DNA of 64,000 nucleotides from Anaerolineae bacterium (lineage in GTDB: Bacteria; Chloroflexota; Anaerolineae; VGOG01), in assembly GCA_049589355.1 (NCBI GenBank), contig JBAWAP010000280.1, forward strand, positions 32-64,031, written 5' to 3'. Shown one piece after another: positions 13,261 through 33,235 of the stretch (its first letter is position 1; each line of letters begins with the position of its first letter). The notes under the pieces were generated by a model that saw only the letters and a list, made by a program, of their open reading frames with translations, was not told where the DNA came from and ran no database searches. Position numbers and translations under genes: made by a program.

Positions 13261-13321
13261 AGCCTGAGTAGTCACGGAACTTCGATCTTTTGGTTGGACA
13301 GGAAGTCACCCAGAAAACGCA

Positions 13322-14746: not shown

Positions 14747-14954
14747 AGAAGTTCTCCTTTTGGAACTCTCTCGTTTGGCACGAAGTGTACTAGAGCGAGG
14801 GTTGCTTTTTCAGGCAATGCTTTCCCTGCGATCTATGTTATCATATATTGGGGAACTTGTCAAGGTTCTCGGGGAATTCTTAAGGTTCGTCTTGGGTGCG
14901 ATGGCCACCCCCTCTTTCCCCCCCAACGTTGGGGGGGAGGAAGGGGGGAGGAGG

Positions 14955-15821
14955 TTAGAGGAAGTACAAGACTGCTATCACAGCCAGCCCCCAAAGGCCA
15001 AGAGCTATCATCATGGGCAGATCACTTAGGAATATCTCCTCGGGAGTCCCGCCTTTGTTCTCGATGTGGATCAAGTAGAGATAGCGGAAGAGGCCGTAGA
15101 GGACAAAGGGGATGGTCAGCATCATGGCGTGGTTGGGCGGCAGGTTCGGTGCGGAGAAGGTGTAGAGAGAATAGGCGATAATCGTGGCCGAGGTAACGAC
15201 GGCGGTCATTTGATCCAGTAGAGGGAGGCTATACTCGTTCAGGCTGGCGCGGTGCTCGTTGGCGTTCTCCGCAAGGAGGATCAGCTCGTGGCGTCGCCTG
15301 CTGAACCCGATGAATAGCGCTACTAACGTGGTGCAGACGTAGAGCCAGGGGGAGATGGGGACGGAGATGACCACCGCCCCGGCTACCGCCCTCAAGACAA
15401 AGCCAGCGGCTACCGTCAGCACGTCAAGGATGACGATGTTCTTGAAGACAAAAGAGTAGACGGTCATGGTCAGGAAGTAGGCCAGGGCAACGAAGCCAAA
15501 GTAGAGGTTTAACAAGAAGGAGAGGGGCAGGGTGACGAGAGGGATCAGCACCCCGGCGGCAATAGCTACCGAAGGCTTCAGTTGCCCTGAGGGCAGGGGG
15601 CGCAGGCGCTTGGTCGGGTGCTGGCGGTCCTTTTCGATATCCACCACGTCATTGATGAGATAAACAGCGCTGGACATAAGGCAGAAGAGGACGAAGGCGG
15701 CAATGGTCTTAAGCAGGGGGACCGGCGTGAACAGCTCTTCGACGAACACCAAAGCCGTGAAGATGAACACGTTCTTGGGCCACTGTTTGGGCCGCATGGT
15801 TTTGAGGAGGCTAATTAACAT
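14955..15821 (-). CDS. UbiA-family prenyltransferase (decaprenyl-phosphate phosphoribosyltransferase-like)
   Basis: MLISLLKTMRPKQWPKNVF.., ..YLINDVVDIEKDRQHPTKRLRPLPSG..; preferred start is the internal ATG at 15821, not 16085. Confidence 0.8.
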   Translation of the reverse strand: MLISLLKTMRPKQWPKNVFIFTALVFVEELFTPVPLLKTIAAFVLFCLMSSAVYLINDVVDIEKDRQHPTKRLRPLPSGQLKPSVAIAAGVLIPLVTLPLSFLLNLYFGFVALAYFLTMTVYSFVFKNIVILDVLTVAAGFVLRAVAGAVVISVPISPWLYVCTTLVALFIGFSRRRHELILLAENANEHRASLNEYSLPLLDQMTAVVTSATIIAYSLYTFSAPNLPPNHAMMLTIPFVLYGLFRYLYLIHIENKGGTPEEIFLSDLPMMIALGLWGLAVIAVLYFL

Positions 15822-18960: not shown

Positions 18961-19595
18961 AGCCCAAGCGCGATGGCGGTGGAAAACTGGACGTCCTGAC
19001 GAACTTCGATCCCTATTTGACCTTCTTGATCTTCGCTGTCATTGGTCTGGGGACCTTGCGGCTAGGGATGGAAGCTCGCTTGCTCATACTTTGGCTGGTG
19101 TTGCTGGGGATCTGCTTGATCTATGCCGAGGGGCAGGCCATAGCCATGCAATACGGGCTGGTCAACCTGGGGCGTGGAGCAGTAGTTGGTCTGGTCATCT
19201 CTTTGCCGCTGCTGTTGTTGGCCAGGGATGCCCTGAAGACTACCTCGGCCAGGCTTTTCCCTTTGACCAGCCAAGCAGCTCTTTTCCAGAGTTTGGTTCT
19301 CCTGGCTGCGCCCATCGAGGAACTGTATTTTCGAGGGTTCCTGCAGCGGGAGCGAGGGCTGGTCAGTGCGGCATTGCTTTACGGCCTGGGCCAGGGTGTC
19401 CTTTTCTTGCCTGGCCTCAGTGGCTTTCCCGCGGTATTGGTTGCCGTGGTAGTGGGTACGGCGCTGTTGGGATTCGTCTACGGTTACGTGTGCCAGCGCT
19501 ATGGCTTGAGCGCCAGCATGAGCTGCCACGCTACGATCAACCTGGTCTTGCTGTTCTTGCCGCTGGCGGTGGGCCAGTGGCTGAGAGCAATTTGA
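18957..19595 (+). CDS. CPBP-family intramembrane metalloprotease (CAAX protease/Abi-like)
   Basis: ..EELYFRGFLQ.. motif, multiple TM segments. Confidence 0.75.
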   Translation: MKPKRDGGGKLDVLTNFDPYLTFLIFAVIGLGTLRLGMEARLLILWLVLLGICLIYAEGQAIAMQYGLVNLGRGAVVGLVISLPLLLLARDALKTTSARLFPLTSQAALFQSLVLLAAPIEELYFRGFLQRERGLVSAALLYGLGQGVLFLPGLSGFPAVLVAVVVGTALLGFVYGYVCQRYGLSASMSCHATINLVLLFLPLAVGQWLRAI

Positions 19596-19630
19596 CGAAA
19601 ACTGATTTCTGTGTTATCATCTATTTGAGT

Positions 19631-19707
19631 GGGGGCGTAGTGTAGTGGCCTAACATATCGGCCTGTCAAGCCGAAGATCGCGGGTCCGAATCCCGTCGCT
19701 CCCGCCA
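19631..19707 (+). tRNA. tRNA-Asp (anticodon GTC)
   Basis: Cloverleaf readable: acceptor GGGGGCG/CGCTCCC, anticodon loop CTGTCAA, T-arm GCGGGTCCGAATCCCGT, 3' GCCA; close to E. coli tRNA-Asp. Confidence 0.9.
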
Positions 19708-19711
19708 GAGG

Positions 19712-19745
19712 ACCGACCTGATCCAAGCAGGTCGGTCTTTGTTGT
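19712..19745 (+). terminator. Hairpin GACCGACCTG..CAGGTCGGTC plus T-run after tRNA-Asp
   Basis: Seen directly; homologous copies at ~21680-21712 and ~28350-28382. Confidence 0.6.
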
Positions 19746-19750
19746 TGGTA

Positions 19751-19779
19751 TTGCAAACCGTGCTCAGGAGTGGTATAAT
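19751..19779 (+). promoter_or_regulatory. Consensus sigma70 promoter TTGCAA-17-TATAAT (copy 1 of 3 of a conserved ~45-bp module)
   Basis: ttgcaaaccgtgctcaggagtggtataat; near-identical at 21719-21747 and 28392-28420. Confidence 0.7.
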
Positions 19780-19799
19780 AGTCGTCAGGGGGAGAGCTA

Positions 19800-20297
19800 A
19801 TGGAGTGGGAGGTGGTCAAACCGTGGGTCAACCGCGTGGGCATAGTGCTCGAATTCCTGTCGTTCTGGCTCGCGGCTCCGGAGATATTGGGAGAGGAGCG
19901 GCTGAGGAAGCTGGAGTGGTGGGCTGAGCAAGGCATAAGAGCGGTGGGGTGTGTGGCACCTTTGGTGATGGCTTTGGGAACGGTGATGTTGCTATCGATG
20001 AAGGACTTGTGGATACGGGGAGCGCAGACAGTGACTCACTTTGTGGAGGCGATAGTTCAGCGTGTAGGGGTGGCGCTGTCGGCAGGCACATTGAGGATAC
20101 TGGCAACAGTGTTGATGCTGGCCTCGTGGGTTCTTCTGCTGTGGATACTGGGGAAGTTGCTGGAGAAGTTCTATGATGCAGTGTCGTTCTTGCTACGGAT
20201 ACTGGCTGACGACGCCCGTGTCCGCCAGCGCTCTCTTGCGGTAGGTGCTGTGCTGTTCGTGGTTGGCTTCTTGTTGCAGTTCATCGCCACGTTCTAG
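19800..20297 (+). CDS. Hypothetical integral membrane protein (165 aa)
   Basis: ORF with 4-5 hydrophobic segments directly downstream of promoter copy 1. Confidence 0.5.
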   Translation: MEWEVVKPWVNRVGIVLEFLSFWLAAPEILGEERLRKLEWWAEQGIRAVGCVAPLVMALGTVMLLSMKDLWIRGAQTVTHFVEAIVQRVGVALSAGTLRILATVLMLASWVLLLWILGKLLEKFYDAVSFLLRILADDARVRQRSLAVGAVLFVVGFLLQFIATF

Positions 20298-20541
20298 GGA
20301 GTGGTGATAGAGGACTGACAATGAGCGAGTACATCAGGGAAGAGATACTGAGGCTAATCGAGGAGAACGGCGGGCCTGAGGGTTTTGCCTTCGTGGCGGG
20401 CAATCGAATTAGGCGGTCGTAGTTTACGGAAGCGAAGTTGTCGGAAGTTCGTTTCGGGGGGTAGCGTAGACGCTGCCATTACCCTGAAAAGCAAACACGC
20501 ACAATGTAAACAGCCTTACTCTAGCAGGGAATTCATCGTTT

Positions 20542-21021
20542 CTACCTTACGCCAATGTTTGATACGATGACAACGATAGCCATTGACGTAGCCAGCACGA
20601 AGACTGTGAAGCCTGCTTTTATGAGCCTGCTTCTGCGCCGAATGACTTTGTTTCTTTCCTGTTCTATTTCATCAACTAGGTCAAGAGAAAAGTGCTTCGT
20701 GACGGGCAGGTAGCCAACGGTGAAAATCACTGAGGCTATGAGGAAAGCAATTGCTGGAAGAGCGACAGTTGCGCCAGCAGCTATTCCGAGAGCATAATTC
20801 TCGGGGAGAATGAAAGCAAGAATACCCAAATAGACAGGTATTGCTCCAGTACTCGTCTTAATCATGAACTGACAGAACTCTCGACCTGTGCTTATCGAGT
20901 CTACAAGCATTGTCTTGCCTGCTTCATAGACTGCTTTGTTATGCGGCGATACTTCTCCGACCTCTACGACCTCGACTTCAGGGGGCTTGTCTAGATTGTC
21001 ATTATGCATTCTCTTGCTCAT
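20542..21021 (-). CDS. Hypothetical membrane protein (159 aa)
   Basis: ORF; AT-richer than surroundings; overlaps upstream Zn-ribbon ORF by 20 bp (operon). Confidence 0.45.
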   Translation of the reverse strand: MSKRMHNDNLDKPPEVEVVEVGEVSPHNKAVYEAGKTMLVDSISTGREFCQFMIKTSTGAIPVYLGILAFILPENYALGIAAGATVALPAIAFLIASVIFTVGYLPVTKHFSLDLVDEIEQERNKVIRRRSRLIKAGFTVFVLATSMAIVVIVSNIGVR

Positions 21022-21307
21022 CGGTTGACTCCGTAACTAGCCCGCTTACTTCTACAGACTCGATTTCTGCGGGGAATCTCTCAGCTATCCAGAAGCGACC
21101 TTGAAAGTCTTCGCCCGTGACAGGACAAGTAAATAGCCTTGTGAAGTATCTTTTGGTCCAACTAGGCTTTTGTGTGCGTTCAGAGTACAGCCCAGACGAA
21201 AGTGTGTTGTAAAGGAAAGCGGAGCGAGTTACCTCTAGCTGATACTCATGAGATTTACCGCATTCAGGACATTCGGTTATTGTCAAGGTGTGACTTCTCG
21301 ATGGCAT
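21002..21307 (-). CDS. Hypothetical zinc-ribbon protein (CPECG..CPVTG)
   Basis: ORF 101 aa with two CxxC/CPxTG pairs. Confidence 0.45.
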   Translation of the reverse strand: MPSRSHTLTITECPECGKSHEYQLEVTRSAFLYNTLSSGLYSERTQKPSWTKRYFTRLFTCPVTGEDFQGRFWIAERFPAEIESVEVSGLVTESTDEQENA

Positions 21308-21646
21308 TTTGGCACACTCCTCCTTGGCACATGGTAAGGGTTTGGAAGCAAGTGCCTACCTATTGAGTCTACGACACGAACTAAGACGCCCGTCTGCCTT
21401 GCGACAGGCCGGCTTCCGTGCTATACCACCCTTTGTCAGGCTGTCGCCACGGTCTGGCCGTGCCTCGATGGTTCCCATCAAACCAGTCGGGGCTTTTCGT
21501 TATTCACCTATTCCTATTGTACTACAGTCCGCGGGTCTGCGCAAGTCCCTCTAGACCCTGGCCTGTCTTTGACTTGTCTGGCGCCCTCCACGCGAAGGAG
21601 CCCTACAGAGGGAATAAGCGCTATCTTGCCTTCATGCGCTTGTCGC

Positions 21647-21686
21647 CGCGGGTTCAAATCCCGTCGCTCCCGCCAGAAGACCGACC
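21647..21686 (+). repeat. Partial duplicate of tRNA-Asp 3' end plus following sequence (direct repeat of 19683-19720, 35/38 identical); att-like site
   Basis: gcgggttcaaatcccgtcgctcccgccagaagaccgacct vs gcgggtccgaatcccgtcgctcccgccagaggaccgacct. Confidence 0.8.
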
Positions 21687-21718
21687 TACTTGAACCAGGC
21701 CGGTTTTTCTTTCTGGGC

Positions 21719-21747
21719 ATTGCAAACTGCGCTCAGGAGTGGTATAA
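21719..21747 (+). promoter_or_regulatory. Consensus sigma70 promoter TTGCAA-17-TATAAT (copy 2)
   Basis: ttgcaaactgcgctcaggagtggtataat. Confidence 0.7.
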
Positions 21748-21914
21748 TAGTCGTGAAATCTTGGTTTTGCAGTTCGGTGAGGGGATTGGGATGGGGGGTG
21801 GGAGAACGCGATTGTCTTTCTCTGGACAAGAGCCGAGTTTTGCAGTATACTAAGCCTCAAATCACTCCCTCCAGCGCACGTTAGCATGGGGGAAAACACG
21901 CGAAGGAGTCAACA

Positions 21915-22565
21915 ATGAAGAAAGCCACATTGCTCGTAGTTCTCATGACACTACTGACTGCTTGTCAGCAGCTTCGGCCGACGCCGGAAATCGTCAGGGT
22001 CACAGTGCTGGTAACCCAACCGCCTCCAAAGCCGATTGAGGTCACGGTGCTTGTGACCCAGCCGCCCCTGCCTACGTATACTCCTTATCCTACTTATACC
22101 CCTTATCCAACTTGCCCACCACCCGCATCCACGCTTCAAGCTACTGAGACGCCAATTCTATCCACGCCCACTTCCCCGCCCACGGGGACACCAGTAGCTA
22201 CTTCCGCTCTTACTTCCACCCTTACTTCCACTCTTACACCCGAATCTCTTGCTGTGCCCATCTGCCCCAATCCTCTAGCCAGGCTCACTTATCCTATGGC
22301 GAACTCCGTTCTGAAGGGGGTTGTGGAAATCAGGGGCTCAGCGCACATTGACAATTTCGACTACTACAAGTTCGAGTTTCGCAGCAAGGGGGCGCTCGAC
22401 TGGGCTTTCGTGCAGAGCTTCAAGGACACGGTGGCTGATGGGCTCCTGGGTGTGTGGGACACTTCGTCTCTTCCCGCCGGCGCTTACAAGTTCCGCCTGG
22501 TCGTGGTGGACAAAATAGGCAATTACCCGAAGCCCTGTGAAGTGGACGTGACCATCGAGCACTGA
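21915..22565 (+). CDS. Hypothetical lipoprotein with Pro/Thr-rich repeats
   Basis: Signal peptide with lipobox LLTAC; internal repeats VTVLVTQPP, PYPTYTPYP. Confidence 0.6.
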   Translation: MKKATLLVVLMTLLTACQQLRPTPEIVRVTVLVTQPPPKPIEVTVLVTQPPLPTYTPYPTYTPYPTCPPPASTLQATETPILSTPTSPPTGTPVATSALTSTLTSTLTPESLAVPICPNPLARLTYPMANSVLKGVVEIRGSAHIDNFDYYKFEFRSKGALDWAFVQSFKDTVADGLLGVWDTSSLPAGAYKFRLVVVDKIGNYPKPCEVDVTIEH

Positions 22566-22611
22566 CCAGCCTCAGTGCCGTCTATTTGATTCTCCAGAAA
22601 GGCTACTCAGG

Positions 22612-22843
22612 CTGTCATTGCGAGTCGGCCATGGCGCGCCCCGCCATTCTAAAGGACAGAAACTTCATCATGTCATTGCGAGGCGACGGTTTTCCGCCGA
22701 AGCAATCCCCAATTAGCTACGTGGAGATTGCTTCGCTCCTGCGGGGCTCGCAATGACAGGTAAGTTTCTGAGTAGCGAAGCGAAGCAATCCCCAAGCCGC
22801 AAGGAGGAGATTGCTTCGTCGCAAAAAACGCTCCTCGCAATGA
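22612..22843. repeat. Composite of three nested/tandem GTCATTGCGAG-type MITE copies
   Basis: GTCATTGCGAG at 22613 and 22670; CTCGCAATGACA at 22747-22758 and 22832-22843. Confidence 0.8.
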
Positions 22844-22881
22844 CACGGGCTGAGCAGTTACCCGGAAAGGAGTGAAAGTAT

Positions 22882-23937
22882 ATGACCCTGGTAGAACGAG
22901 CCGAGGTCGAAGACGCTGTCTTGAAGATGCTCCGCGTTAATATGGGTCTCAAGACCGGTGAGCGGCTGCTCGTCGTCACCGACGTGCCCACCCTGGAACA
23001 ATGGACAACCGGCCCTCAACCCTTCCTGACACTGATGACCCAACGTGCCATGTTGGCCAAAACAGTGGCCGAGGTTGCCCAGGAGCTAATGGCAGGGGTG
23101 GAAGTGGGATTCTTGCCTTTCCCCTCCACGGGGCGCAACGCGGTGGAGCCACCAGCGGAGGTGGCCGAGCGCATGAAGGCTGCCGACGTGGTGATCATCA
23201 TCACCTCGTTCTCCCTCTCGCACACGGATGCTCGGGAAGAGGCGTGTCGCGCCGGGGCGCGCATTGCTTCTATGCCACGCTTTATCCCAGAGATGTTTTA
23301 TCCCGATGGGCCTATGGATGCCGACTACGGCGAGGTCAAACGACTCACCGGGCGCATCGCTGCGGCTCTGACGCCAGCGCGCCAGGTGCATGTCACCTGC
23401 CCGGCCGGGACGGACATCACGTTCAGCATCGAGGGCCGGCCAGGGCAGGTTGACGCCGGGATATACACCCAGCCGGGGATGTGGGGCAATCTGCCCGCGG
23501 GCGAGGCATACTGCGTGCCGCTGGAAGGCACTGGTCAGGGCGTGATCCAGGTCACCCCGGGCTGGCACGCCGATCTCACCGAGCCCATGGCCTTGGTCTT
23601 TGCCAGGGGTGGACTGGTCGAGCTACGGGGTGGCGGGACGGTGGGCGATCAGTTGCGCGACATTCTGCGGCCCGGGAATGATGCCGAGCCTTACAAATCG
23701 CGCCGTAACCTCGGCGAGTTTGGCATCGGCACCAACCCCAATGCCCGGCGGGTGGCCATCACCCTGGAGGCCGAAAAGATCAAGGGCACGGTCCACCTGG
23801 CCACGGGTGACAATGCCCACATGGGCGGCCTAGTCAATGCCGACTATCACCAGGATTTCGTCATCCCCAGGGCGAGTTTCACCCTGGATGGCCAGTTGGC
23901 CATGCAGGATGGGGAGATCGTGCTACGCGATACATGA
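22882..23937 (+). CDS. M29 (aminopeptidase T/S)-like protein, paralog 1
   Basis: ..CPAGTDITFSIEG.., ..LATGDNAHMGG.. resemble M29 family motifs. Confidence 0.5.
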   Translation: MTLVERAEVEDAVLKMLRVNMGLKTGERLLVVTDVPTLEQWTTGPQPFLTLMTQRAMLAKTVAEVAQELMAGVEVGFLPFPSTGRNAVEPPAEVAERMKAADVVIIITSFSLSHTDAREEACRAGARIASMPRFIPEMFYPDGPMDADYGEVKRLTGRIAAALTPARQVHVTCPAGTDITFSIEGRPGQVDAGIYTQPGMWGNLPAGEAYCVPLEGTGQGVIQVTPGWHADLTEPMALVFARGGLVELRGGGTVGDQLRDILRPGNDAEPYKSRRNLGEFGIGTNPNARRVAITLEAEKIKGTVHLATGDNAHMGGLVNADYHQDFVIPRASFTLDGQLAMQDGEIVLRDT

Positions 23938-23988
23938 TGCGTGGTGCATCATGGTACGCAGTGTATGACATTAGAGGGAGGTTATATC

Positions 23989-25053
23989 ATGGAACTGGCA
24001 TTGGGAACCGAACCGACCCGTACCTACCTGGCCTTTGAACTGGCCCGGGGAGCACGCACGTTGATCGAAGACGTTATGCTAACCAAACCCGGCGAGCAGG
24101 TGGTGATTACTGCCGACACGTCCACTGACTGGCGAGTGGTAGAGGCCACGGCTCAAGCGGCCTACGCTGCCAAGGCCACGCCGACCGTGGTGTGGTACGA
24201 GAGCCGGCCTGGACCGGTCATCGAGCCGCCGGGGCCCGTAGCGGGAGCGGTTCGCCAGGCCGACGTGTGGATCGAATACGCTGTGGCCTACTTGCTCCAT
24301 ACCGAGGCCTACAAGCGGGCGCTGGAGCAGGGTTGTCGCTACATCTGTCTGACCGGTATGGATGTAGGAATGATAGTGCGCACTGTTGCCCAGGTGGATT
24401 ATCCGAAGATGATCGAGTTGAGCCATGTGCTGGGAGGCCTGATCGCTCAGGCGGATCACGTCCGGGTCACCAGCCCAGCGGGAACTGACCTGGTGGCCAA
24501 AATGGGCGGACGCAAGATCCGCTACTCCGGCAAGCTGGCCGATACGCCCGGCGAGCCCATCATGCTCGGTGGGCAGATATCGTGGTGTCCACTGGAGGAG
24601 ACCATTGAGGGCACGCTCGTCTTCGATGGGGCGGTCTGGCCGCCCAAGGAACTGGGCCTGCTGCGTTCACCCATCCGGTTGACCCTGGAGAGTGGGCGGG
24701 TGACCAGGGTCGAAGGCAGCAGTGAGGCCAAGGTGCTGGAGCGCTGGCTCGCTTCGATTGGCAATCCCAACATCTGCCGGCTGGCGCACTATTCGCTGGG
24801 CTTTAATCCGGGCGTGACCCGGTGCACCGGTCGCATCGTGGAGGACGAGCGCGTTTTCGGCTGCATCGAGTTCGGCATTGGCAGCCAGGGTGCGCAGATC
24901 GGTGGGTTGACCTGGGACGCGGGCGGGCACACGGATGGCATCGTCCTCAACCCGACGATCTACCTCGATGGCCAGGCTATGGAGGAGGAAGGCCGTTACG
25001 TGCATCCGGGTGTGGTGGCAGCCTGCCGGGAGTTAGGAGTGTCGGGGTATTGA
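23989..25053 (+). CDS. M29 (aminopeptidase T/S)-like protein, paralog 2
   Basis: Parallel motifs (..SPAGTDLVAKMGG.., ..IEFGIGSQG..); ATG 23989 with RBS preferred. Confidence 0.5.
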   Translation: MELALGTEPTRTYLAFELARGARTLIEDVMLTKPGEQVVITADTSTDWRVVEATAQAAYAAKATPTVVWYESRPGPVIEPPGPVAGAVRQADVWIEYAVAYLLHTEAYKRALEQGCRYICLTGMDVGMIVRTVAQVDYPKMIELSHVLGGLIAQADHVRVTSPAGTDLVAKMGGRKIRYSGKLADTPGEPIMLGGQISWCPLEETIEGTLVFDGAVWPPKELGLLRSPIRLTLESGRVTRVEGSSEAKVLERWLASIGNPNICRLAHYSLGFNPGVTRCTGRIVEDERVFGCIEFGIGSQGAQIGGLTWDAGGHTDGIVLNPTIYLDGQAMEEEGRYVHPGVVAACRELGVSGY

Positions 25054-25229
25054 TAAGAGACCGTCGAATGGAATTCGACGTCTGAAGGTGAGAAGGCCCC
25101 TCAGGGCCTGCCCGCCGGCAAGCAGGGCCTGATTTCAGCGCCTGAGGGCGCTTTTCAACTTCAGACGGGGATTTCTAATCCTCGGCTCTGGACGAGATGG
25201 ATGACCGATACATGTTTCCAGCCTGAGGT

Positions 25230-26174
25230 GTGGAGATGGCCTTGAAACAAACCATTGAGGCGTATGAATTGCTGGACAGCGCCACAGTCAGCGGTGAGAC
25301 TGTGGCCGCTGTGCTTCGAGAGCGCGGATTGCGGGTGGAAGTGATCCCCGTCCAGGGTGAGGAGGGAAGCACTGACTTTGTCCGCGCCCTGGTGCCCGGC
25401 ACTTTGGGCAAGCAAGCCAATGGCCAGTCTCCCACGCTGGGCATCATCGGCCAACTGGGAGGCATTGGCGCCAGGCCGGCGGCTATCGGCCTGGTGTCCG
25501 ACGCCGACGGAGCTATCGCGACCATCGCCTGCGCCCTCAAGCTGGCGGACATGGCCAACGCCGGCGACCGGCTGTCCGGAGACGTCATCGTTGCCACTCA
25601 CGTCTGCCCTGATGCCCCCACCATTCCCCACGCCCCCGTGCCCTTCATGGGGTCGCCGGTGGATATAGCCACCATGAACCGGTACGAGGTCCATCCTGAG
25701 ATGGACGCCATCCTGTCGGTGGATACCACCCGAGGCAACTGGGTGATCAACCGGCGGGGCTTCGCCATCTCGCCCACGGTGAAAGAGGGCTACATCCTTA
25801 AAGCCAGTCCTGACCTGCTGCGCATCATGTCCGTGGTGACCGGCCAGGCGCCGGCGGTGTTACCCATCACCACCCAGGACATCACTCCCTACGGCAATGG
25901 CATCCACCACCTCAACAGCATCATGCAGCCGGCCACGGCCACGGATGTCCCGGTGGTGGGCGTGGCCTTGACGGCCGAGACGGCGGTGCCCGGCTGCGCT
26001 TCGGGGGCCAGCCAGGTCATGGACATCGAGATGGCAGTGCGCTTCTGCCTGGAGGTGGCCAAGGCTCTCGGCCGGGGTGAGTGCGCCTTCTACGATGCTG
26101 AGGAATTCGGCCAACTGGTGGCTCTATATGGCTCGATGAAACACCTGCAGACTTTGGGGAAAGGGGAGGAATGA
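25230..26174 (+). CDS. DUF1177-family protein
   Basis: Family resemblance; typical neighbour of AroM. Confidence 0.5.
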   Translation: MEMALKQTIEAYELLDSATVSGETVAAVLRERGLRVEVIPVQGEEGSTDFVRALVPGTLGKQANGQSPTLGIIGQLGGIGARPAAIGLVSDADGAIATIACALKLADMANAGDRLSGDVIVATHVCPDAPTIPHAPVPFMGSPVDIATMNRYEVHPEMDAILSVDTTRGNWVINRRGFAISPTVKEGYILKASPDLLRIMSVVTGQAPAVLPITTQDITPYGNGIHHLNSIMQPATATDVPVVGVALTAETAVPGCASGASQVMDIEMAVRFCLEVAKALGRGECAFYDAEEFGQLVALYGSMKHLQTLGKGEE

Positions 26175-26878
26175 TGCCTGGCTCCCCAATCCTTCGACCA
26201 AGCTCAGGACAAGAGCGTGTGTTGGGCCTGGTGACCATTGGTCAATCGCCCCGGGATGACGTCGTGTCCCAGATGTTACCGCTTTTGCCGGCCGTCCTGG
26301 ATATCCGGCAGGTGGGTGCGCTGGATGGTCTGACCCCCGAGCAGATTGCTGAGCTGGCCCCTGGCCCGCAGGACTACGTCCTCCACACCCGACTGCAGGA
26401 TGGCTCGGCGGCCACCGTAGGCCGCGAACGGATCACGGCGCTTCTGCAGGATTGCCTGAAGCAACTGCAGGGCGAAGGAGCCAACCCCATCGTGCTGTTG
26501 TGCACCGGGGAGTTCCCCGGGTTGCGGAGCGATGCGTTGCTGATCGAGCCGGATCGGCTGCTGGTCAACGTGGTCCGTGGGCTGAGACCACGTCGAGCGG
26601 GCGTGCTGGTGCCGTTGCCCTCGCAGATCGAATCTGCGGCCGCGAAATGGAGGGTGCTGGAAGCCGAGGTGGTGTTCGTGGCCGCATCGCCCTATGGGGA
26701 ACAGATCGAGCTCACCCGGGCGGCGGAGGAGTTGGAGGGGCACCCTCTGGATCTGGTGGTTATGGATTGCATGGGCTACACGTTGGCTCACAGACGGGTG
26801 GTCACGCAGGCGACCGGCAGGCCGGTTATCCTGGCTTCCAGGGTGGTGGCACGTATAGTCGGGGAGTTGGTGGAGTAG
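26171..26878 (+). CDS. AroM-family protein
   Basis: ..VTIGQSPRDDV.. conserved AroM motif; overlaps upstream gene by 4 bp. Confidence 0.6.
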   Translation: MMPGSPILRPSSGQERVLGLVTIGQSPRDDVVSQMLPLLPAVLDIRQVGALDGLTPEQIAELAPGPQDYVLHTRLQDGSAATVGRERITALLQDCLKQLQGEGANPIVLLCTGEFPGLRSDALLIEPDRLLVNVVRGLRPRRAGVLVPLPSQIESAAAKWRVLEAEVVFVAASPYGEQIELTRAAEELEGHPLDLVVMDCMGYTLAHRRVVTQATGRPVILASRVVARIVGELVE

Positions 26879-26958
26879 AAAGGCGCGCATAGCAGGTTTG
26901 CCAAACCCGTCAGGTCTCCAAAATGGAAGAAGGGCCAACGCAGGAGGCGTAGACGCAA

Positions 26959-27879
26959 ATGAAGGGAGCATTCTCGATGACCAAGCCTACCATCGGTTTC
27001 ATCGGTCTAGGGGTCATGGGCAAGCCCATGGCCAGGAACTTGCTCAAAGCGGGCTATCCGCTGGTGGTCCACAATCGCAGCCGTGATCCAGTGGAGGAGC
27101 TGGCCGCCGAGGGAGCCAAGCCGGCGTTTTCCCCTGCAGAGGTGGCGTCCAGGACCGAGTTGATCATCACCATGCTCCCTGATTCGCCCGACGTGGAGCT
27201 GGTCGCCCTGGGCGAGGGTGGCCTCATAGAGGGGGTAAGCGAGGGCGATGTCTATGTGGATATGAGCACCATTGTGCCAACTGTGGCGGTGAAGGTGGCT
27301 GAGGCGATGGCCGAAAAAGGGGTGCGCTGCCTTGATGCGCCGGTCAGCGGCGGTGATGTGGGCGCCCGGGAGGGTACCCTGTCTATCATGGTCGGCGGTG
27401 ACGAGGAGGTCTTCAACGAGGTGCTGCCCATTTTCGAGGTGATGGGTAAGACCATCGTGCGTTGTGGCCCGAATGGTGCCGGGCAGACGGTTAAAGCCTG
27501 TAACCAGATCCAGGTCGCTTTGACCCTGATCGGCATGGCCGAGGCGCTGGTTCTGGGGGCCAAGGCTGGAGTGGACCCAGCAATCGTGGTCAAGGTCCTC
27601 AGTGGTGGTTTTGCTCAGTCACGAGTCATGGATGTGCGCGGGCCGAGGGTTATCAGGCGCATCTTCGAGCCGGGGTTCAGAAGTAAGCTGCATTACAAAG
27701 ATCTCAACATCGTCCGTGAGACGGCGCGGGCCTATGGCATCTCGTTGCCAGCATCGGCCCTGGCTCATGAGCTATTCGGCGCCATGCAGGCCCAGGGGTG
27801 GGGAGACCTCGATCACTCTGCGGTGATGCGGGTCATTGAGCTGCTCTCTGATGTCGAGGTTCGCACGGCGGAAGGATAA
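26959..27879 (+). CDS. NAD(P)-dependent 3-hydroxyisobutyrate / tartronate-semialdehyde reductase family dehydrogenase
   Basis: ..IGFIGLGVMGKPMARNL.. Rossmann, 6PGDH-like C-terminal domain. Confidence 0.85.
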   Translation: MKGAFSMTKPTIGFIGLGVMGKPMARNLLKAGYPLVVHNRSRDPVEELAAEGAKPAFSPAEVASRTELIITMLPDSPDVELVALGEGGLIEGVSEGDVYVDMSTIVPTVAVKVAEAMAEKGVRCLDAPVSGGDVGAREGTLSIMVGGDEEVFNEVLPIFEVMGKTIVRCGPNGAGQTVKACNQIQVALTLIGMAEALVLGAKAGVDPAIVVKVLSGGFAQSRVMDVRGPRVIRRIFEPGFRSKLHYKDLNIVRETARAYGISLPASALAHELFGAMQAQGWGDLDHSAVMRVIELLSDVEVRTAEG

Positions 27880-27923
27880 TGGTATAATATACACATGATG
27901 CGTGAACGGCAAGGAGGTGACTG

Positions 27924-28160
27924 ATGACACACGACCGCATTGAGGTAAATCCAGCAATCATGTTCGGCAAGCCGGTGATCAAAGGCACGCGCATCACCGT
28001 GGAGCATATCTTGCGCAAACTGGCCGGAGGGATGATGATTGACGAGATTCTGGCCGACCATCCGCACCTTACACCAGATGACATATATGCTGCCGCTGCC
28101 TTCGCGGCCGATTATCTGGCTCAGGAAGAGATCGTCTTCGCCGGTGGAGAGCGACTGTGA
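27924..28160 (+). CDS. DUF433-family protein (antitoxin-like partner of DUF5615)
   Basis: ..MFGKPVIKGTRITVEHIL.. typical DUF433. Confidence 0.7.
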   Translation: MTHDRIEVNPAIMFGKPVIKGTRITVEHILRKLAGGMMIDEILADHPHLTPDDIYAAAAFAADYLAQEEIVFAGGERL

Positions 28161-28300
28161 GATTCTTGGCCGACGAATGTTGCGATGCTGCTCTAGTGTA
28201 TGCCCTTCGCAGTGATGGTCACGACGTCTATGCTATCGAATCGCTGCGTGGCGCAACCGATGACGAACTCCTGGCTCGATCCTTATTTAGATTGAAATCA
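28157..28300 (+). pseudogene. DUF5615 (PIN-like) gene truncated after ~47 codons
   Basis: VRFLADECCDAALVYALRSDGHDVYAIESL.. matches the DUF5615 N-terminus, then a premature stop where the downstream terminator/promoter module begins. Confidence 0.6.
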
Positions 28301-28339
28301 TAAAAAAGCTAGAAATCATGAGAAATGCATGATCTTTCC

Positions 28340-28420
28340 ACCTATCAGAAGACCGACTTGGTTGAACCAGGTCGGTCTTTTGGTGTGGGTATTGCAAATC
28401 GCGCTCAGGCGTGGTATAAT
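28340..28420 (+). promoter_or_regulatory. Third copy of terminator-like hairpin + consensus promoter TTGCAA-17-TATAAT module, upstream of the DUF499 gene
   Basis: cagaagaccgacttggttgaaccaggtcggtctttt..ttgcaaatcgcgctcaggcgtggtataat. Confidence 0.7.
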
Positions 28421-28537
28421 ATGCATATAAGACAACCTGCCCGGTAGAGAGATGGGAAGCCAGCGGTAGGGATAGTCATAGGAAGTTGCCAAGGTAGAAC
28501 CCTGGGTGGGCTTTTGGGCTGAGAAGGGAGGGGTTCC

Positions 28538-31500
28538 ATGAGGACAATCTTCGACAGTTGTGAACCGCGATCCGAGGTTCTGAAAGGCGAGCTGCGAGAC
28601 GAAATCTTCGCGGCCCGGTTGAGAGATGTGATCATCGGCAAGGCCGATCCTGTCTATCAGGACCCTGTTATCTTCTTTGACAACACTTATCCCACCGAGG
28701 GCCTCAAGCTGCTGCTGGACGAAGGGCTGGGACGGCTGACTGGCCTCAAACCGGCCAGTAACGCCATCATCCGCCTAGAGACGGCCTTTGGCGGCGGCAA
28801 GACCCACAATCTAATCGCTCTCTACCATGCAACGATGGGCTATCGGCCCAGCGCCTCGCTGGTGGACACGGCACTCATTCCAATGCCGGGCTCCATCCAG
28901 GTGGTGGGCGTTGTTGGCTCGGACCTGCAGCCCTCGACGGGACTGGCTCACAACGGGTTCAGAACCTACACCCTCTGGGGTGAGATCGTTGCTCAGTTGA
29001 CCGATGACCAGGACCCCGCTCTGGTAGAACAAAGTGAGCGGGACAAGGTCGCCCCGGGCACCGGGCTGTGGGAGGAGTTGATCGGCGACGAACCCATGCT
29101 GATCATGCTGGACGAGATAGCCCGCCACCTGCGGGCAGCCAAGGCAGTGCCTACCACTACTGGCAAGTCGGACCTGGCTGAGCAGACGGTGGCCTTCCTC
29201 ATGTCCCTCTTCGAGTTCGCGGCCAGCAAGGAGCGAGTGGTGGTAGTCTACACCCTGGCCGATCCTCAAGATGCCTTCGGCAAGGAGACCGAGGAGCTGC
29301 GCCAGGAGCTGGCCGAAGCCAGGCGCGTCTCGGCGCGTCAGGAGCGTGTCATCACTCCTACAGGCGAGACCGAGATCTCGGCCATTGTCACCCACCGCCT
29401 GTTCCGACGCATAGATCACGCTGCTGGCCAGGCCACGGCTGCCGCCTACGCTGCCTACCTCAAGATGGCCCTGGATCAGAGCGCCGATCTACCCTCTCGG
29501 GCCGCCAGGGCCGAGTACGCCCAGGAGATGGTCAACGACTATCCCTTCCACCCCGAGCTACTGACTACCCTCAACCGCAAGACCTCGACCATTCCCAACT
29601 TTCAGAAGACCCGTGGCGCGCTGCGGCTGCTGGCCAGGGTGATCCGCCGCCTGTGGGAGAGGCGCCCGCCGGACGCTTACCTGATTCATCCCTATCACCT
29701 CGATCTGGCGGTGGAGGATATCGCTGGTGACTTGACCAGTCGCCTGGAGCGGCCGGCCTTTAAACAGGTGATCGAAGCGGACATCGTCAGTCCCAAGGCT
29801 GGCTCGCCAGCCCATGCCCAGTTGATTGACGTCTCCTGGCTGGAGGCCGGCAAACCGCCTTATGCTCGCCGCATCGCCACCACCGCCTTCTTGCACAGCC
29901 TGACCCAGGGCATCGCCACCGGAGTGGACCCGGCCGACCTGGCTCTGGCCGTGCTCCAGCCTGACGACGACCCCACCATGGTGGCCAAGGCTGCCGAGCG
30001 ACTGTACGACATCGGCTGGTTCTTCGAGTGGGATGGGCGCCGCTACCGCTTCAAGACCGAGCCGTCACTCAACAAGATTGTGACCGATGAGATGGGGTTG
30101 GTGGGACGTACCAAGGCCAAGGCTGAACTGGATGGGCGTATCCGTCAGGTGTGGAAAACGGGTTATTTCAAGCCGGCCTATTTCCCCAGCGAAGCCGGTG
30201 ACGTGGACGACGACGCCGACAAGCCCAAGTTGGTGGTCATCCACTACGACGCCGCCACCAGCAACGCTGGGGCAGCGGCTCCACCCGACCTGGTGCGCAA
30301 GATCTTCGACCACGCCGGGGCACTGCAGGGTTACCGTATCTATAAGAACAACGTCTTGTTCCTGGTGGCCGACGAAGACCAGGTGGAGAACATGGTGCAG
30401 GTAGCGCAGCGGTATCTGGCTATCGGGCGCATCACTGGCGACGCCGAGCGGATGGGGGAGTTCCACGAGGAGCAGCGCAAGAAGCTGAAGAAGATGGGCG
30501 AGGCCGCCGAGTTGGACGTGCGAGTGGCTATCACCAAAGCCTGTAAGTACCTCTACTATCCCAGTGCCGACGCCCCGCAGAAACACAGCAACCTGGCTCG
30601 CGAGACGCTACCCGCCCAGGATCAGGGTGAAGTCAACCAGGACCAGAGCAACGTGGTGCTGCGGGTGCTGAAGCAGTTGCAGAAGGTCCTGACAGCCGAC
30701 GATTCAACCCTGCCAGCCGCCTTTGTCAAGGCCAAAGCCTGGGATACGGGTCAGGCGAGCATGTCCACCGAGGATATGCGCCGTGCCTTCGCCCGCCGCA
30801 TGGGACTGCGCATCCTATTGGACCTGAACCAGCTCAAGAAGACCGTCCGCAACGGCATCAGCCAGGGCATCTGGGTCTACTACGACACGCCCGAACAGAT
30901 TGGCTACGGGCCGGAATCCCCAAGTCCCATGGTGCAGATCAGCGAGGATGTTCTCCTGTACACGCTGGAGGAAGCCAGACGGCTGGGGCTACGTATCAAA
31001 GGGGAGCGGGAAGAGGGCATTGGCCTTGAGGAGACTTGCCCTATCTGCCACCGGCCCGTCAGCCAGTGCATCTGTGGCCAGGCCTGTCCGGTGTGCGGGC
31101 AGGACCCGTGTGTCTGCGGAGTGAGGATCCGACTCCACGCCGATGGCGCGCCAGCCCAGGCTTTCCAGGGACTTCTCGATCAGTGTCACGACCAGGGTGT
31201 GACCAGCTTGGGCCGCCTCTTCGTGCGCATTGAGGGGAGGGACAGAGAGGGAGCGATGGAGGCCCGGGCCATGGGGCTGGCCATCCCCCAGTTGGGCAAG
31301 GGGCAATTCCGTGTAGAGCAGTCCTTCAACGCCGAGTTCGGCGAGGCCGAGTCACTGAGCCTGGTCTTTAACGGTGCTTGGGACCGCTACAAGCGGGTCA
31401 AGCAATTGACTGACGCCTTCGGCCACGAGGCCAGCAAGCTGTTGGCCAGGACCACTCTGCGGGCCGATTTCCCCGATGGCCTGGCCGTGGACTCAGACCA

Positions 31501-31588
31501 GTTCCAGACCATCCACGAGGTGTTCATCACGCTTGGCTTCGGGCACATGGTACTGGATGCGGAGCCGTGGATAGAAGAACACTCGTAG
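28538..31588 (+). CDS. DUF499-family P-loop ATPase (1016 aa), defence-island type
   Basis: N-terminus MRTIFDSCEPRSEVLKGELRDEIFAA.. and ..ETAFGGGKTHNL.. Walker A typical of DUF499; Cys-rich insert CPICHRPVSQCICGQACPVCGQDPCVCG near C-terminus. Confidence 0.7.
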   Translation: MRTIFDSCEPRSEVLKGELRDEIFAARLRDVIIGKADPVYQDPVIFFDNTYPTEGLKLLLDEGLGRLTGLKPASNAIIRLETAFGGGKTHNLIALYHATMGYRPSASLVDTALIPMPGSIQVVGVVGSDLQPSTGLAHNGFRTYTLWGEIVAQLTDDQDPALVEQSERDKVAPGTGLWEELIGDEPMLIMLDEIARHLRAAKAVPTTTGKSDLAEQTVAFLMSLFEFAASKERVVVVYTLADPQDAFGKETEELRQELAEARRVSARQERVITPTGETEISAIVTHRLFRRIDHAAGQATAAAYAAYLKMALDQSADLPSRAARAEYAQEMVNDYPFHPELLTTLNRKTSTIPNFQKTRGALRLLARVIRRLWERRPPDAYLIHPYHLDLAVEDIAGDLTSRLERPAFKQVIEADIVSPKAGSPAHAQLIDVSWLEAGKPPYARRIATTAFLHSLTQGIATGVDPADLALAVLQPDDDPTMVAKAAERLYDIGWFFEWDGRRYRFKTEPSLNKIVTDEMGLVGRTKAKAELDGRIRQVWKTGYFKPAYFPSEAGDVDDDADKPKLVVIHYDAATSNAGAAAPPDLVRKIFDHAGALQGYRIYKNNVLFLVADEDQVENMVQVAQRYLAIGRITGDAERMGEFHEEQRKKLKKMGEAAELDVRVAITKACKYLYYPSADAPQKHSNLARETLPAQDQGEVNQDQSNVVLRVLKQLQKVLTADDSTLPAAFVKAKAWDTGQASMSTEDMRRAFARRMGLRILLDLNQLKKTVRNGISQGIWVYYDTPEQIGYGPESPSPMVQISEDVLLYTLEEARRLGLRIKGEREEGIGLEETCPICHRPVSQCICGQACPVCGQDPCVCGVRIRLHADGAPAQAFQGLLDQCHDQGVTSLGRLFVRIEGRDREGAMEARAMGLAIPQLGKGQFRVEQSFNAEFGEAESLSLVFNGAWDRYKRVKQLTDAFGHEASKLLARTTLRADFPDGLAVDSDQFQTIHEVFITLGFGHMVLDAEPWIEEHS

Positions 31589-31640
31589 TAACGACTTTAG
31601 CTCGACATTGTTAAATTCGCTGTCGTAGCCAACAAAGGAT

Positions 31641-31852
31641 GTCATTGCGAGTCTTCCATGGCGCGGTGCGCCATCCGTAGGGGGCAGAAACTTGGGCGAG
31701 GTTCGTAGTAACAGCTTTAGCTGTCGTTTGGCAGCAAAGGCGACTAAAGTCGTCTACGAACCAAGTTTCTGAGTAGCGCAGCGAAGCAATCTCCCGCCTT
31801 CAAATGCAAGCAACGGTGGAGATTGCTTCGTCGCTGCGCTCCTCGCAATGAC
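31641..31852. repeat. GTCATTGCGAG-type MITE copy carrying an internal GTTCGTAGTAACAGCTTTAGC/GACTAAAGTCGTCTACGAAC palindrome; surrounded by further GTAGTAACGACTTTAGTC-type repeats (31592, 31893, 31935)
   Basis: Seen directly. Confidence 0.8.
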
Positions 31853-31968
31853 ACTTGGCCTGGAATCTAACAATGTCAAGTTAGTCGTTAATTGTGAACG
31901 ACTGAAGTCGTTACTACGGCGTTGCTACAACTTGTAGTAATGACTTTAGTCGTTCAAGGAGACCAAAT

Positions 31969-32898
31969 GTGAAGGCGCTTTCCATCCGCCAACCCTGGGC
32001 TGAGTTGATCCTCCAGGGACGCAAGACTATCGAACTGCGCACCTGGCCGACGAGCTACCGCGGCCGCATCGCCATCCATGCCAGCCAGACAGTTCGAGAG
32101 GAGGCTTGCATTGCCTATGGTCTGGATCCGGCCAGAATGGTGCGCGGCGCGCTGGTGGGCACGGTGGAACTGGTGGACGTTTTGCCGCTGGACGAGGCGG
32201 CATGGGAGGCTCTGCGCGATCAGCACCTGTCGTTGAGTGACTTCCCCGGCCCGATGTTCGGCTGGCGGCTGGAGGCCCCCCAACGCCTGCCCCAGCCGAT
32301 CCCCATGCGCGGCCGCATGAGCCTGTTTAATGTGGCCGATGAGGTGATAGCGGGAAAAGCACCACATTCCCCCCTCTCCCAGGGTTGGGAGAGGGGGCTA
32401 GGGGGTGAGGGCTTTGCGCCGCCCAAGGTGACCTATAACACGCGGGCCGATGCGCCGGCCTACGACCCTGAAAAACCCTTCGAGCTGTGGGTGGTTCCCT
32501 GCGATGGCGGCGACTATGGCCTGGCGTTGTATCAGTGGCCCGTGGCGGCCAATCGTGAGATCCCAAAGCCCCAGCGACTGGTGGAGCTGGCTGGCGATTC
32601 GCTGCGGGCTGTGGCCGACCACGTGCTGGAAGCGTTGCGCAAGAGTGACTATAAGGTGACCGACCTGTCTCACAACCGCCAAAAGCCCTTCCGCCTGGAC
32701 GAAGAGACGGGCTTGCGCCTGGGCCTGCTCTTTCTGGCTGTCAAACCATTGACCCGCATGGATCGCGTCGAGGCCATCTCTAGCGGCTTACGCACCATGC
32801 CGTCCGAGGAAGCCTACTATTGGTTCAGCAAGTGCACCGCTGAGGCGAGCGCTGTCAATGCCCAGCGGGCGCTGCGAATTTTGTTGGCTGGAGAGTGA
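31969..32898 (+). CDS. ASCH (PUA-like) domain protein with ~190-aa uncharacterized C-terminal region
   Basis: ..LSIRQPWAELILQGRKTIELRTW.. ASCH signature; GTG start with AAGGAGA RBS. Confidence 0.7.
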   Translation: MKALSIRQPWAELILQGRKTIELRTWPTSYRGRIAIHASQTVREEACIAYGLDPARMVRGALVGTVELVDVLPLDEAAWEALRDQHLSLSDFPGPMFGWRLEAPQRLPQPIPMRGRMSLFNVADEVIAGKAPHSPLSQGWERGLGGEGFAPPKVTYNTRADAPAYDPEKPFELWVVPCDGGDYGLALYQWPVAANREIPKPQRLVELAGDSLRAVADHVLEALRKSDYKVTDLSHNRQKPFRLDEETGLRLGLLFLAVKPLTRMDRVEAISSGLRTMPSEEAYYWFSKCTAEASAVNAQRALRILLAGE

Positions 32899-32969
32899 AG
32901 TGAAGGGAATGACCTGTCCGCTCCCCTGGAGTGTGAGTAGTGAAGTGTTGTTAAATTAAGGAGGATGAT

Positions 32970-33221: not shown

Positions 33222-33235
33222 CGCAGGAGGCGCAG

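Follow-up and report, generated by a model that had tools for sequence, protein, structure and literature searches.

Copies of a tRNA-Asp terminator-promoter flank head separate gene modules at a variable locus of an Anaerolineae bacterium

The 64,000-nucleotide stretch of DNA analyzed here (the window; contig JBAWAP010000280.1 of assembly GCA_049589355.1, from an Anaerolineae bacterium of the Chloroflexota) carries an intact tRNA-Asp(GTC) gene, which is followed by a hairpin predicted to act as a transcription terminator and by a predicted promoter. We refer to this hairpin-plus-promoter segment of about 80 nt as the unit. The unit is found in the window three times in full and once in part, each copy heading a different gene module, and the window contains no recombinase gene. 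A preliminary description of the window had taken this arrangement as the signature of serial integration at a tRNA gene. Here, we describe the unit and its copies in the window and in about 35 related Anaerolineae loci (numbered with the prefix L), and we weigh the processes that may have produced them. The tRNA gene and the unit copies are the following.

19592-19620, plus strand: promoter-like site of the tRNA-Asp gene, TTGACG-17-TATCAT with TG, found by promoter pattern scan
19631-19707, plus strand: tRNA-Asp(GTC), intact, called by ARAGORN and Rfam (64.9 bits)
19705-19788, plus strand: unit 1; hairpin 19708-19740 with T-run, -35 at 19751-19756, TGg and -10 at 19774-19779
21633-21676, plus strand: tRNA-Asp 3' fragment of type A; T-arm to CCA at 21647-21676, left junction CTTGTCGC from 21633
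21674-21756, plus strand: unit 2; weakened hairpin 21680-21705, -35 at 21720-21725, -10 at 21743-21748, directed toward a lipoprotein gene
27880-27897, plus strand: partial fourth unit; TGGTATAAT and transcription-start region, abutting the stop codon of the 3-hydroxyisobutyrate dehydrogenase (HIBDH) gene, scanned as TTCGCA-17-TATAAT
28345-28428, plus strand: unit 3; hairpin 28345-28383, -35 at 28392-28397, -10 at 28415-28420, predicted promoter of the Hma operon

A degenerate 29-nt pattern spanning the -35 to the -10 element (TTGCAAANNGNGCTCAGGNGTGGTATAAT) matches the window three times, always on the plus strand (19751, 21720 and 28392), and has no match in 100 shuffles of the window. The three hairpin-and-promoter copies reported in the preliminary description are thus real, and their coordinates were essentially right. 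Repeat finding groups 19705-19780, 21674-21749 and 28346-28421 (~76 nt) as one family, and an nhmmer profile of the unit detects no further copies in the window. Each full copy consists of a GC-rich hairpin and T-run followed by TTGCAA, a 17-nt spacer and TGgTATAAT, that is, the elements of an intrinsic terminator and of a sigma-70-type promoter with hexamers 17 nt apart. A pattern scanner reports promoters with a TG-extended -10 at all three copies and a terminator at the first hairpin. The promoter had been called perfect, which overstates the case: no more than 4 of the 6 positions of TTGCAA agree with TTGACA, the -35 consensus, and the strength of the promoter would be owed to its 17-nt spacer and to TGgTATAAT. 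The predicted RNA folding energies of copies 1, 2 and 3 are -21.7, -11.0 and -27.9 kcal/mol, the stem of copy 2 having a mismatch. Across 18 copies, 94% of cells in the hairpin stem are paired with one compensatory change, and covariation support for the hairpin is weak because the stem is nearly invariant. The 7-nt loop within the hairpin core (ACCGACCTG-N7-CAGGTCGGT) occurs in two exact reverse-complement states (ATCCAAG/CTTGGAT, ATTCAAG/CTTGAAT), seen at 19720-19726 and 21690-21696 of the window and in L002, L025, L026, L031 and others; it has repeatedly been flipped by minute inversions inside the hairpin.

ARAGORN and Rfam agree on the tRNA-Asp gene where it had been placed, and the promoter-like sequence at 19592-19620 is kept 5' of tRNA-Asp in relatives. 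The reported downstream copy of the tRNA 3' end is also present: the last 30 nt of the gene recur at 21647-21676 with 28 of 30 positions identical, both mismatches falling in the T-loop. Rfam recognizes the T-arm alone in the type A fragment, at site 2 of the window as well as in L004, which gives no support to the idea that the fragment is a structured RNA or a whole tRNA in decay. When 19-29 kb was scanned with Rfam by E-value for a riboswitch or small RNA in the leaders, the tRNA alone was returned. The T-loop of the intact gene (19684-19690) reads TCCGAAT, with a C at the normally invariant U55 position, and is common to the intact tRNA-Asp genes of L002, L016, L020, L031 and L033. The T-loop of the other relatives and of the displaced fragment is TTCAAAT or TTCGAAT, the fragment having TTCAAAT, the form of the intact gene in most relatives.

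Unit 1 is the native tRNA 3' flank, and it is predicted to drive a 165-aa membrane protein gene. Unit 3 has no tRNA fragment, its homology beginning at CAGAAG just past the CCA position. The partial copy at 27880-27897 (TGGTATAATATACACATG) corresponds to the -10/start segment of the full unit found 5' of the DUF433 gene in L016, L012 and L013. The three full copies are 79-82% identical among themselves, and they are 93%, 89% and 83% identical to the best copy in another genome; from hairpin to -10, unit 2 has 89% identity with the unit beside the tRNA in L025 and only 80% with unit 1. Since the window copies are closer to those of other genomes, they are old or imported rather than the product of recent local duplication. 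Unit 2 and the membrane-protein leader have AGTCGT in common and then diverge.

The related loci were reached by three routes: the promoter pattern across 185,579 species genomes (six loci), the promoter pattern in metagenomes (21 contigs), and homologues of the CAAX protease, a route independent of the unit that gave seven informative loci. The first route yielded one exact match in each of five Chloroflexota/Anaerolineae metagenome-assembled genomes (MAGs) and one Ruminococcus promoter, and all pattern matches in related contigs are at or near tRNA-Asp. Hairpin and promoter stand directly 3' of an intact tRNA-Asp in 13 pattern-derived loci and in 5 of the 7 CAAX-route loci (L029, L030, L031, L033 and L035). 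A hairpin only follows tRNA-Asp in L032, a different terminator lies right after the tRNA in L034, and small insertions, two of them miniature inverted-repeat transposable elements (MITEs), separate hairpin from promoter in L012, L020 and L015/L027. The presence of the unit after an intact tRNA in 18 related loci shows that it is a native flank and no dispersed element. By this comparison the ~80-nt unit is the ordinary 3' flank of tRNA-Asp(GTC) in this Anaerolineae lineage, composed of the tRNA's predicted intrinsic terminator and then a predicted extended -10 promoter.

Two other identities for the unit were set aside. A ubiquitous promoter element, which the preliminary description had named as an alternative, is rejected because the exact pattern occurs only at tRNA-Asp-linked sites in the five Anaerolineae MAGs and in the single Ruminococcus promoter among the 185,579 genomes. 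The one exact copy per MAG, at or near tRNA-Asp, also does not fit a MITE or a dispersed promoter repeat. The Ruminococcus match lies in the promoter of a lipoprotein gene of R. flavefaciens SAb67 (L005 7524-7555; TATTGCAAATATTGCTCAGGCGTGGTATAAT) and is approximately base-for-base, spacer included; about 0.004 chance hits are expected in random sequence, and the match may represent convergence on a strong extended -10 promoter.

The flank itself has been a target of small insertions. A palindromic MITE-like repeat family (GTCATTGCGAG...GAAGCAATC...CTCGCAATGAC) is found at 5521-5705, 13180-13275, 22614-22860 (between the lipoprotein and M29-like peptidase genes) and 31641-31853 of the window, and at L001 1-65, L012 5205-5318 and L017 3122-3204. 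The L012 copy lies exactly between the tRNA-Asp hairpin and the promoter, and those of L001 and L017 come after the unit. These repeats may cause assembly breaks at the locus. In L020 (~970-1135, minus strand), an insertion of ~155 nt between hairpin and promoter ends in inverted repeats (GTGAGCGTAT/ATACGCTCAC) and is flanked by a duplication of TTGTTTTGT; it is therefore taken as a second MITE type in the same gap.

The units of the window are set among the following genes.

Up to tRNA-Asp: core genes left of the tRNA, ending in a beta-eliminating lyase gene and then a CAAX/Rce1-like protease gene
19800-20297, plus strand: 165-aa membrane protein without a Pfam family; its gene directly follows the tRNA unit in the window as well as in L014, L017 and L030
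20321-20422, plus strand: 33-aa remnant of a pentapeptide-repeat gene, N-terminus joined to last codons, interior deleted
20433-21632, minus strand: low-GC 1.2-kb insert with two open reading frames (ORFs), not present in relatives
20542-21021, minus strand: 159-aa membrane protein ORF inside the low-GC insert
21002-21307, minus strand: 101-aa zinc-ribbon-like ORF inside the low-GC insert
21915-22565, plus strand: 216-aa lipoprotein, no Pfam family
22882-27879, plus strand: peptide-catabolism cluster of two M29-like peptidases, DUF1177, AroM and HIBDH
27924-28160, plus strand: DUF433 antitoxin-like gene
28157-28303, plus strand: truncated DUF5615/PIN-like gene covering profile positions 1-43 of 110; homology ends at ~28275-28280
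28281-28344, no strand: AT-rich junction DNA, ~65 nt, between truncated DUF5615 and unit 3
28538-40819, plus strand: Hma-type defence system (PADLOC), after unit 3
28538-31588, plus strand: HmaC/DUF499 ATPase (PADLOC 3.3e-96)
31969-32898, plus strand: ASCH-DUF7680
33236-36265, plus strand: HmaB/DUF1156 methylase (PADLOC 2.8e-74)
36293-36667, plus strand: DUF5678
36664-37050, plus strand: aspartyl protease (retropepsin-like)
37079-40819, plus strand: PLD-SNF2 helicase, HmaA-like (PADLOC HmaA 1.2e-61)
40809-40902, plus strand: right junction; GTAGTTTGACAG repeats 20415-20425 (after the pentapeptide stop), then AT-rich moeA leader as in L030
40903-42165, plus strand: moeA, the conserved right flank of the variable region; mobB next

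Several of these modules bear marks of deletion. The pentapeptide-repeat gene is full length (397-517 aa) in L004, L025, L026 and L030, and window segments 20310-20382 and 20389-20432 match both of its ends; in L004 the gene ends 36 nt from a tRNA fragment. The two minus-strand ORFs of the low-GC insert (159 and 101 aa) have no Pfam or PADLOC match. In L024, another tRNA fragment and unit stand behind the 3' end of the lipoprotein gene. The HIBDH gene has kept its 5' untranslated region (5'UTR) at 26887-26958 and its unit is gone. The window's DUF5615 gene is truncated, since an intact gene of 117 aa exists in L016; it had been described as cut exactly at the third cassette, but its homology stops ~65 nt before unit 3, and the intervening AT-rich stretch matches no related locus.

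The assignment of cargo to sites stands insofar as units head three modules, to which the module behind the fourth, partial unit has to be added. What had been called a DUF499 operon is an Hma-type defence system, in which the HmaA helicase, the HmaB DUF1156 methylase and the HmaC DUF499 ATPase are encoded together; the helicase scores higher on the BrxH, PbeA and DrmD models than on HmaA. This operon has extra genes, ASCH-DUF7680 after HmaC and DUF5678 plus the aspartyl protease between HmaB and the helicase. In L018/L022 and L002, one or two different unassigned genes (228-290 aa) follow ASCH-DUF7680 (L018 1863-3394), and the Hma system is therefore itself modular. GC content is low only at 20-22 kb (0.51-0.52) and core-like elsewhere (0.55-0.65).

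The left side of the locus, from the genes for ribosomal proteins as far as those for the CAAX protease and tRNA-Asp, keeps its synteny among relatives, and the right side is variable. tRNA-Asp and moeA lie 2.2 kb apart in L030, 5.2 kb apart in L029 and 21 kb apart in the window, and the contents behind the tRNA differ in all relatives examined, as the following loci show.

L030, 2.2 kb: unit, small membrane protein, pentapeptide gene, moeA-mobB
L029, 5.2 kb: unit, MqsA-like gene and others, HIBDH, moeA
L003: unit, convergent gene for a 731-aa hydrolase-like lipoprotein, M29-like, fragment and unit, HIBDH-DUF1177-AroM-moeA; no Hma
L002: hairpin, convergent 705-aa gene, unit, HmaC
L016: unit, DUF433, full-length 117-aa DUF5615
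L035: unit, HIBDH, oligopeptide ABC transporter
L031: sugar-metabolism genes after HIBDH

The first gene after the promoter may thus encode, depending on the genome, the membrane protein, a pentapeptide protein, DUF433, an MqsA-like protein, DUF4258, a C39-like peptidase, HIBDH, PIG-L or HmaC. When the window is aligned to L030, its leanest relative, the pentapeptide 3' end (20380-20425) and the moeA leader (~40809-40902) are matched, ~20.4 kb is extra in the window, and GTAGTTT is common to both junctions. The comparison shows the tRNA-Asp to moeA interval to be a hot spot of gene turnover. Cargo of other relatives includes a TIR-like protein (PADLOC 1.4e-07) and a secreted SNase-LTD nuclease (L006 3760-4584 and 2270-3514), as well as a DUF4258/MqsA-like toxin-antitoxin pair and a C39-like peptidase (L024 1103-1759 and L015 1048-1572).

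Copies of the unit detached from an intact tRNA are found in several genomes. Those with a tRNA fragment fall into four types whose left junctions differ and all lie in the T-arm.

Type A: the window, L004/L007, L006 and L013, with left junction CTTGTCGC in common
Type B: L024
Type C: L003/L023
Type D: L018/L022

Three further copies start at the CCA end (unit 3 of the window, unit 1 of L004 and the Hma unit of L002). The left ends of secondary copies cluster where tRNA-targeting integrases cross over, either within the T-arm or at the CCA end. A unit precedes the Hma operon in three left contexts, namely truncated DUF5615 (window), the 705-aa gene (L002) and araD (L018/L022). Module order is permuted among genomes: HIBDH stands before DUF1177-AroM in L003 and L023 (unit-HIBDH-DUF1177-AroM-MoeA) and after them in the window, and DUF433 stands before the membrane protein gene in L020, 8 kb after it in the window, and before HIBDH in L013. 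Breakpoints fall in or at the edge of units at 27880 (a -10 remnant), ~26887 (the HIBDH leader minus its unit) and 21755, and in L029 the DUF433 leader is fused to the MqsA-like gene. The preliminary description was correct that the region is accessory and variable, but a simple, ordered series of integrations does not account for its arrangement.

The window holds other features outside the hot spot. A clustered regularly interspaced short palindromic repeat (CRISPR) array of 13 repeats (GTTGCAGCCCATTCGATCCGACACAGGATACTGAAAG, 72-77-nt period) occupies positions 1-959 and runs off the left end of the window, with one spacer present twice (1-30 and 594-623); no cas genes are evident in the few kilobases after it, where a radical SAM gene and an EamA transporter are found. 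Three tandem 97-nt repeats (89-94% identical) lie at 6223-6523, between the ribosomal protein L21 and L27 genes. A 1.9-kb segment at 13060-14955, bordered by the MITE-like repeat at 13180-13275, encodes a 474-aa Reg_prop beta-propeller repeat protein, with DNA repeats at 13.6-14.6 kb, and is not present between the GHMP kinase and UbiA genes of L001, L008, L012 and L015. A maximum of the cumulative GC skew at ~49 kb adjoins smpB and the tmRNA gene (49103-49468), where gene orientation changes from mostly plus to mostly minus; this maximum could be a replication terminus ~30 kb from the hot spot or a mere gene-strand switch.

Our leading reading, which we hold tentatively, is that the secondary copies are relics of att-like junctions formed by recombination at the tRNA-Asp 3' end, which were later reshuffled, and that the units now serve as insulated promoters. 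DNA blocks, each carrying its own tRNA 3' end, terminator and promoter, would have entered by recombination at the T-arm or the CCA end of the tRNA-Asp gene, leaving duplicated junctions resembling attL and attR. The recombinase would probably be a tRNA-targeting enzyme encoded elsewhere or since lost, and the blocks would then be like cis-mobilizable remnants. By analogy with the proposal for the integrase-less ssrA islands of Dehalococcoides, it is most likely that a recombinase not encoded at the locus acted. Homologous recombination between units, together with illegitimate joins, would then have deleted, permuted and truncated modules, with loss of the inner part of the pentapeptide gene, the 3' portion of DUF5615, the unit of HIBDH and, from the DUF433 unit, the half with the -35. 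The units that survive are each predicted to stop upstream read-through and to start transcription ~7 nt after TATAAT, and would express the membrane protein, the lipoprotein (perhaps with the peptidase cluster), the DUF433/truncated DUF5615 pair and the Hma operon. An intact tRNA (19631-19707) and a repeat of its 3' end farther downstream (21647-21676) bound a segment of the window, as in a tRNA island; att-type repeats bound segments that lack recombination and transfer genes, as in cis-mobilizable elements and accretion; and the cargo, toxin-antitoxin pairs and a defence system, is island-like. The clustered left ends of the secondary copies, the greater likeness of the window copies to those of other genomes, the T-loop that the fragment has in common with most relatives, and the unit that goes with the Hma operon in three contexts also speak for this reading.

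A number of observations weigh against this reading. Tyrosine or serine recombinase and transposase domains are missing from all tested ORFs, both in the window, as had been noted before, and downstream of tRNA-Asp in the ~35 loci; Phage_integrase, Resolvase and Recombinase domains in particular were found in no window ORF, no related cargo ORF and no precomputed Pfam annotation. No integrase-bearing element uses this tRNA-Asp site in any of these loci, and simple loss of the integrase from this one genome is therefore insufficient as an explanation. A phage or plasmid attP was considered and found to be without evidence: no phage, plasmid or viral contig carries the fragment with the unit, viral scans for the promoter and for the tRNA end plus hairpin gave nothing (the tRNA end matched only tRNA arrays of two large viral contigs), and blastn against phage and plasmid records had no match. 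The repeat extends ~80 nt past the tRNA end, which is atypical of att sites. The membrane-protein module, formerly regarded as the first cargo, adjoins tRNA-Asp as a membrane-protein/pentapeptide pair with no direct repeat in L010, L025, L026 and L030. As to the empty tRNA-Asp site that was to be sought in relatives, no precise one was seen for 19.7-21.6 kb, and none of the related loci lacks exactly 19708-21646 or 21677-28344; L002 has tRNA and hairpin and then the convergent 705-aa gene, and L030 has tRNA, unit, membrane protein, pentapeptide gene and moeA. Cargo divergence resembles that of the core: HmaC has 84-87% nucleotide identity compared with 84% for the CAAX/lyase region in L002, and HIBDH, DUF1177 and AroM, which adjoin moeA in L003, show a divergence from the window similar to that of core genes. 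The GC content is undistinctive outside 20-22 kb, the right end of the extra DNA (~40809) has GTAGTTT microhomology only and no unit, and the promoter and terminator activities of the unit are predictions.

Several of these points would be expected of an integrase-independent hot spot, the main rival account, which we regard as less likely. In this account, tRNA-Asp and the unit (~190 bp, 85-93% identical among relatives) form a homology anchor; DNA from relatives enters by homologous recombination on the side of the anchor and by a homologous or microhomology join on the other, extra units remain where an imported piece was added instead of exchanged, and RecA-dependent recombination deletes or permutes modules. 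The absence of an integrase from the ~35 loci, the core-like divergence of the cargo, the breakpoints at 27880, 26887 and 21755, and the GTAGTTT microhomology at both ends of the 20.4 kb of extra DNA are all in keeping with it, as are the variable cargo of single-unit loci and the swap point at the start codon behind a common 5'UTR (MqsA-like in L029 versus DUF433 in the window, L012 and L016). Many bacterial hot spots, moreover, lack mobile-element genes (PMC5635113). It does not predict, however, that the left ends of seven independent copies lie only in the T-arm or CCA end, nor that no copy carries a whole second tRNA, and additive direct-repeat insertions are an unusual product of double-crossover exchange. 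The integrase-free account is thus better for single-unit loci and ragged junctions but worse for the clustering of fragment ends.

Two other explanations appear improbable to us. The units could be recombination sites of integrase-less cassettes, the palindromic hairpin derived from the tRNA flank (9-13-bp arms, 7-nt spacer) being the core site of a recombinase acting in trans and each cassette bringing its own promoter. Units do lie at module boundaries in many genomes, in L004/L007/L009 a module lies between two hairpin copies at a distance from an intact tRNA, and the Hma operon keeps its unit in three contexts. The almost invariant stem and the variable loop, present in both orientations, would also suit such a site, but they are equally expected of an ordinary terminator hairpin, and the differing loop (spacer) between copies in one genome would block a tyrosine recombinase; further, no candidate for the recombinase was found, the majority of genomes carry a single unit, and many module junctions lack one. 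If the cassette explanation were true, defence and toxin-antitoxin modules would be shuffled through an array anchored at tRNA-Asp and expressed wherever they land. We give similarly little credence to a purely vertical history, in which an ancestral tandem duplication of tRNA-Asp and its flank was followed by decay of the extra tRNAs and differential loss, with no import. The core-like divergence and ordinary GC content of the cargo suit this history, as do weak residual anticodon-arm similarity upstream of the type A fragment and the tendency of direct repeats to promote deletions. It conflicts with module orders permuted beyond mere thinning (HIBDH/DUF1177/AroM in the window versus L003; DUF433 in L020 and L013), with four fragment types that have different left junctions, with window copies each of which resembles a copy in another genome more than it does the other window copies, and with the recognition by Rfam of a T-arm and no decayed whole tRNA.

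If the unit copies are functional, an incoming block would be insulated from upstream transcription and already switched on, which would help to explain the exchange and expression of Hma and toxin-antitoxin modules in uncultured Anaerolineae. The ~35 public variants of the locus offer a natural test case for distinguishing a site-specific recombinase from homologous recombination alone.

Tandem islands anchored at tRNA or tmRNA genes, cis-mobilizable remnants and integrase-free hot spots are already known. The closest comparison within the Chloroflexota is with the ssrA genomic islands of Dehalococcoides, which form tandem arrays at the tmRNA gene with insertion in the T-loop; 16 islands have a serine recombinase (DsiB) module next to attL, and 15, about half, are without an integration module and are proposed to be mobilizable in cis (McMurdie et al. 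2011, PMC3146451). Both systems have a single-copy small-RNA gene as anchor, several downstream direct repeats of its 3' end, an insertion point in the T-loop region and a highly variable region with strain-specific cargo. The Dehalococcoides repeat, however, is 20 bp long and ends with the gene, whereas the repeat described here runs ~80 nt into terminator and promoter; DsiB is present in 16 islands there and no recombinase in ~35 loci here; and here the order is permuted and the junctions are ragged.

A cis-mobilizable element (CIME) is a segment bounded by att repeats that lacks recombination and transfer genes and is defined relative to a cognate integrase-bearing element at the same site. 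The window resembles CIMEs and their accretion in that att-type repeats bound segments of this kind in tandem at a tRNA-type site, but no cognate integrase-bearing element is known here, and mobility would be assigned by analogy. Both CIMEs and site-specific accretion are named in earlier work (PMC3146451, PMC5704250). Integrase-free hot spots, in which recombination takes place at flanking core genes and mobile-element genes are often lacking (PMC5635113), are similar in their fast turnover between conserved flanks, here CAAX protease/tRNA-Asp and moeA/mobB, and in their cargo of defence genes with no mobility genes. That model has no internal repeats of a tRNA flank, in contrast to the present locus, where repeats of this kind stand at the module boundaries and bring promoters with them.

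The cassettes of integrons mostly lack a promoter and are delimited by attC sites. Like integron arrays and clusters of attC sites lacking integron-integrases (CALINs), the locus has small modules, which are often toxin-antitoxin pairs, with a repeated site that can form a hairpin between them. It differs from them in that the window ORFs include no integron integrase, the repeat consists of a terminator and promoter from a tRNA flank, and there is mostly one unit per genome; no formal attC model was applied.

What sets this locus apart is that the duplicated junction runs ~80 nt past the tRNA and comprises a full terminator-plus-promoter unit that stays with each module. On present evidence it is not a new kind of system; it stands between tRNA-anchored islands and integrase-free hot spots, and it is noteworthy for the turnover of defence islands in the Chloroflexota.

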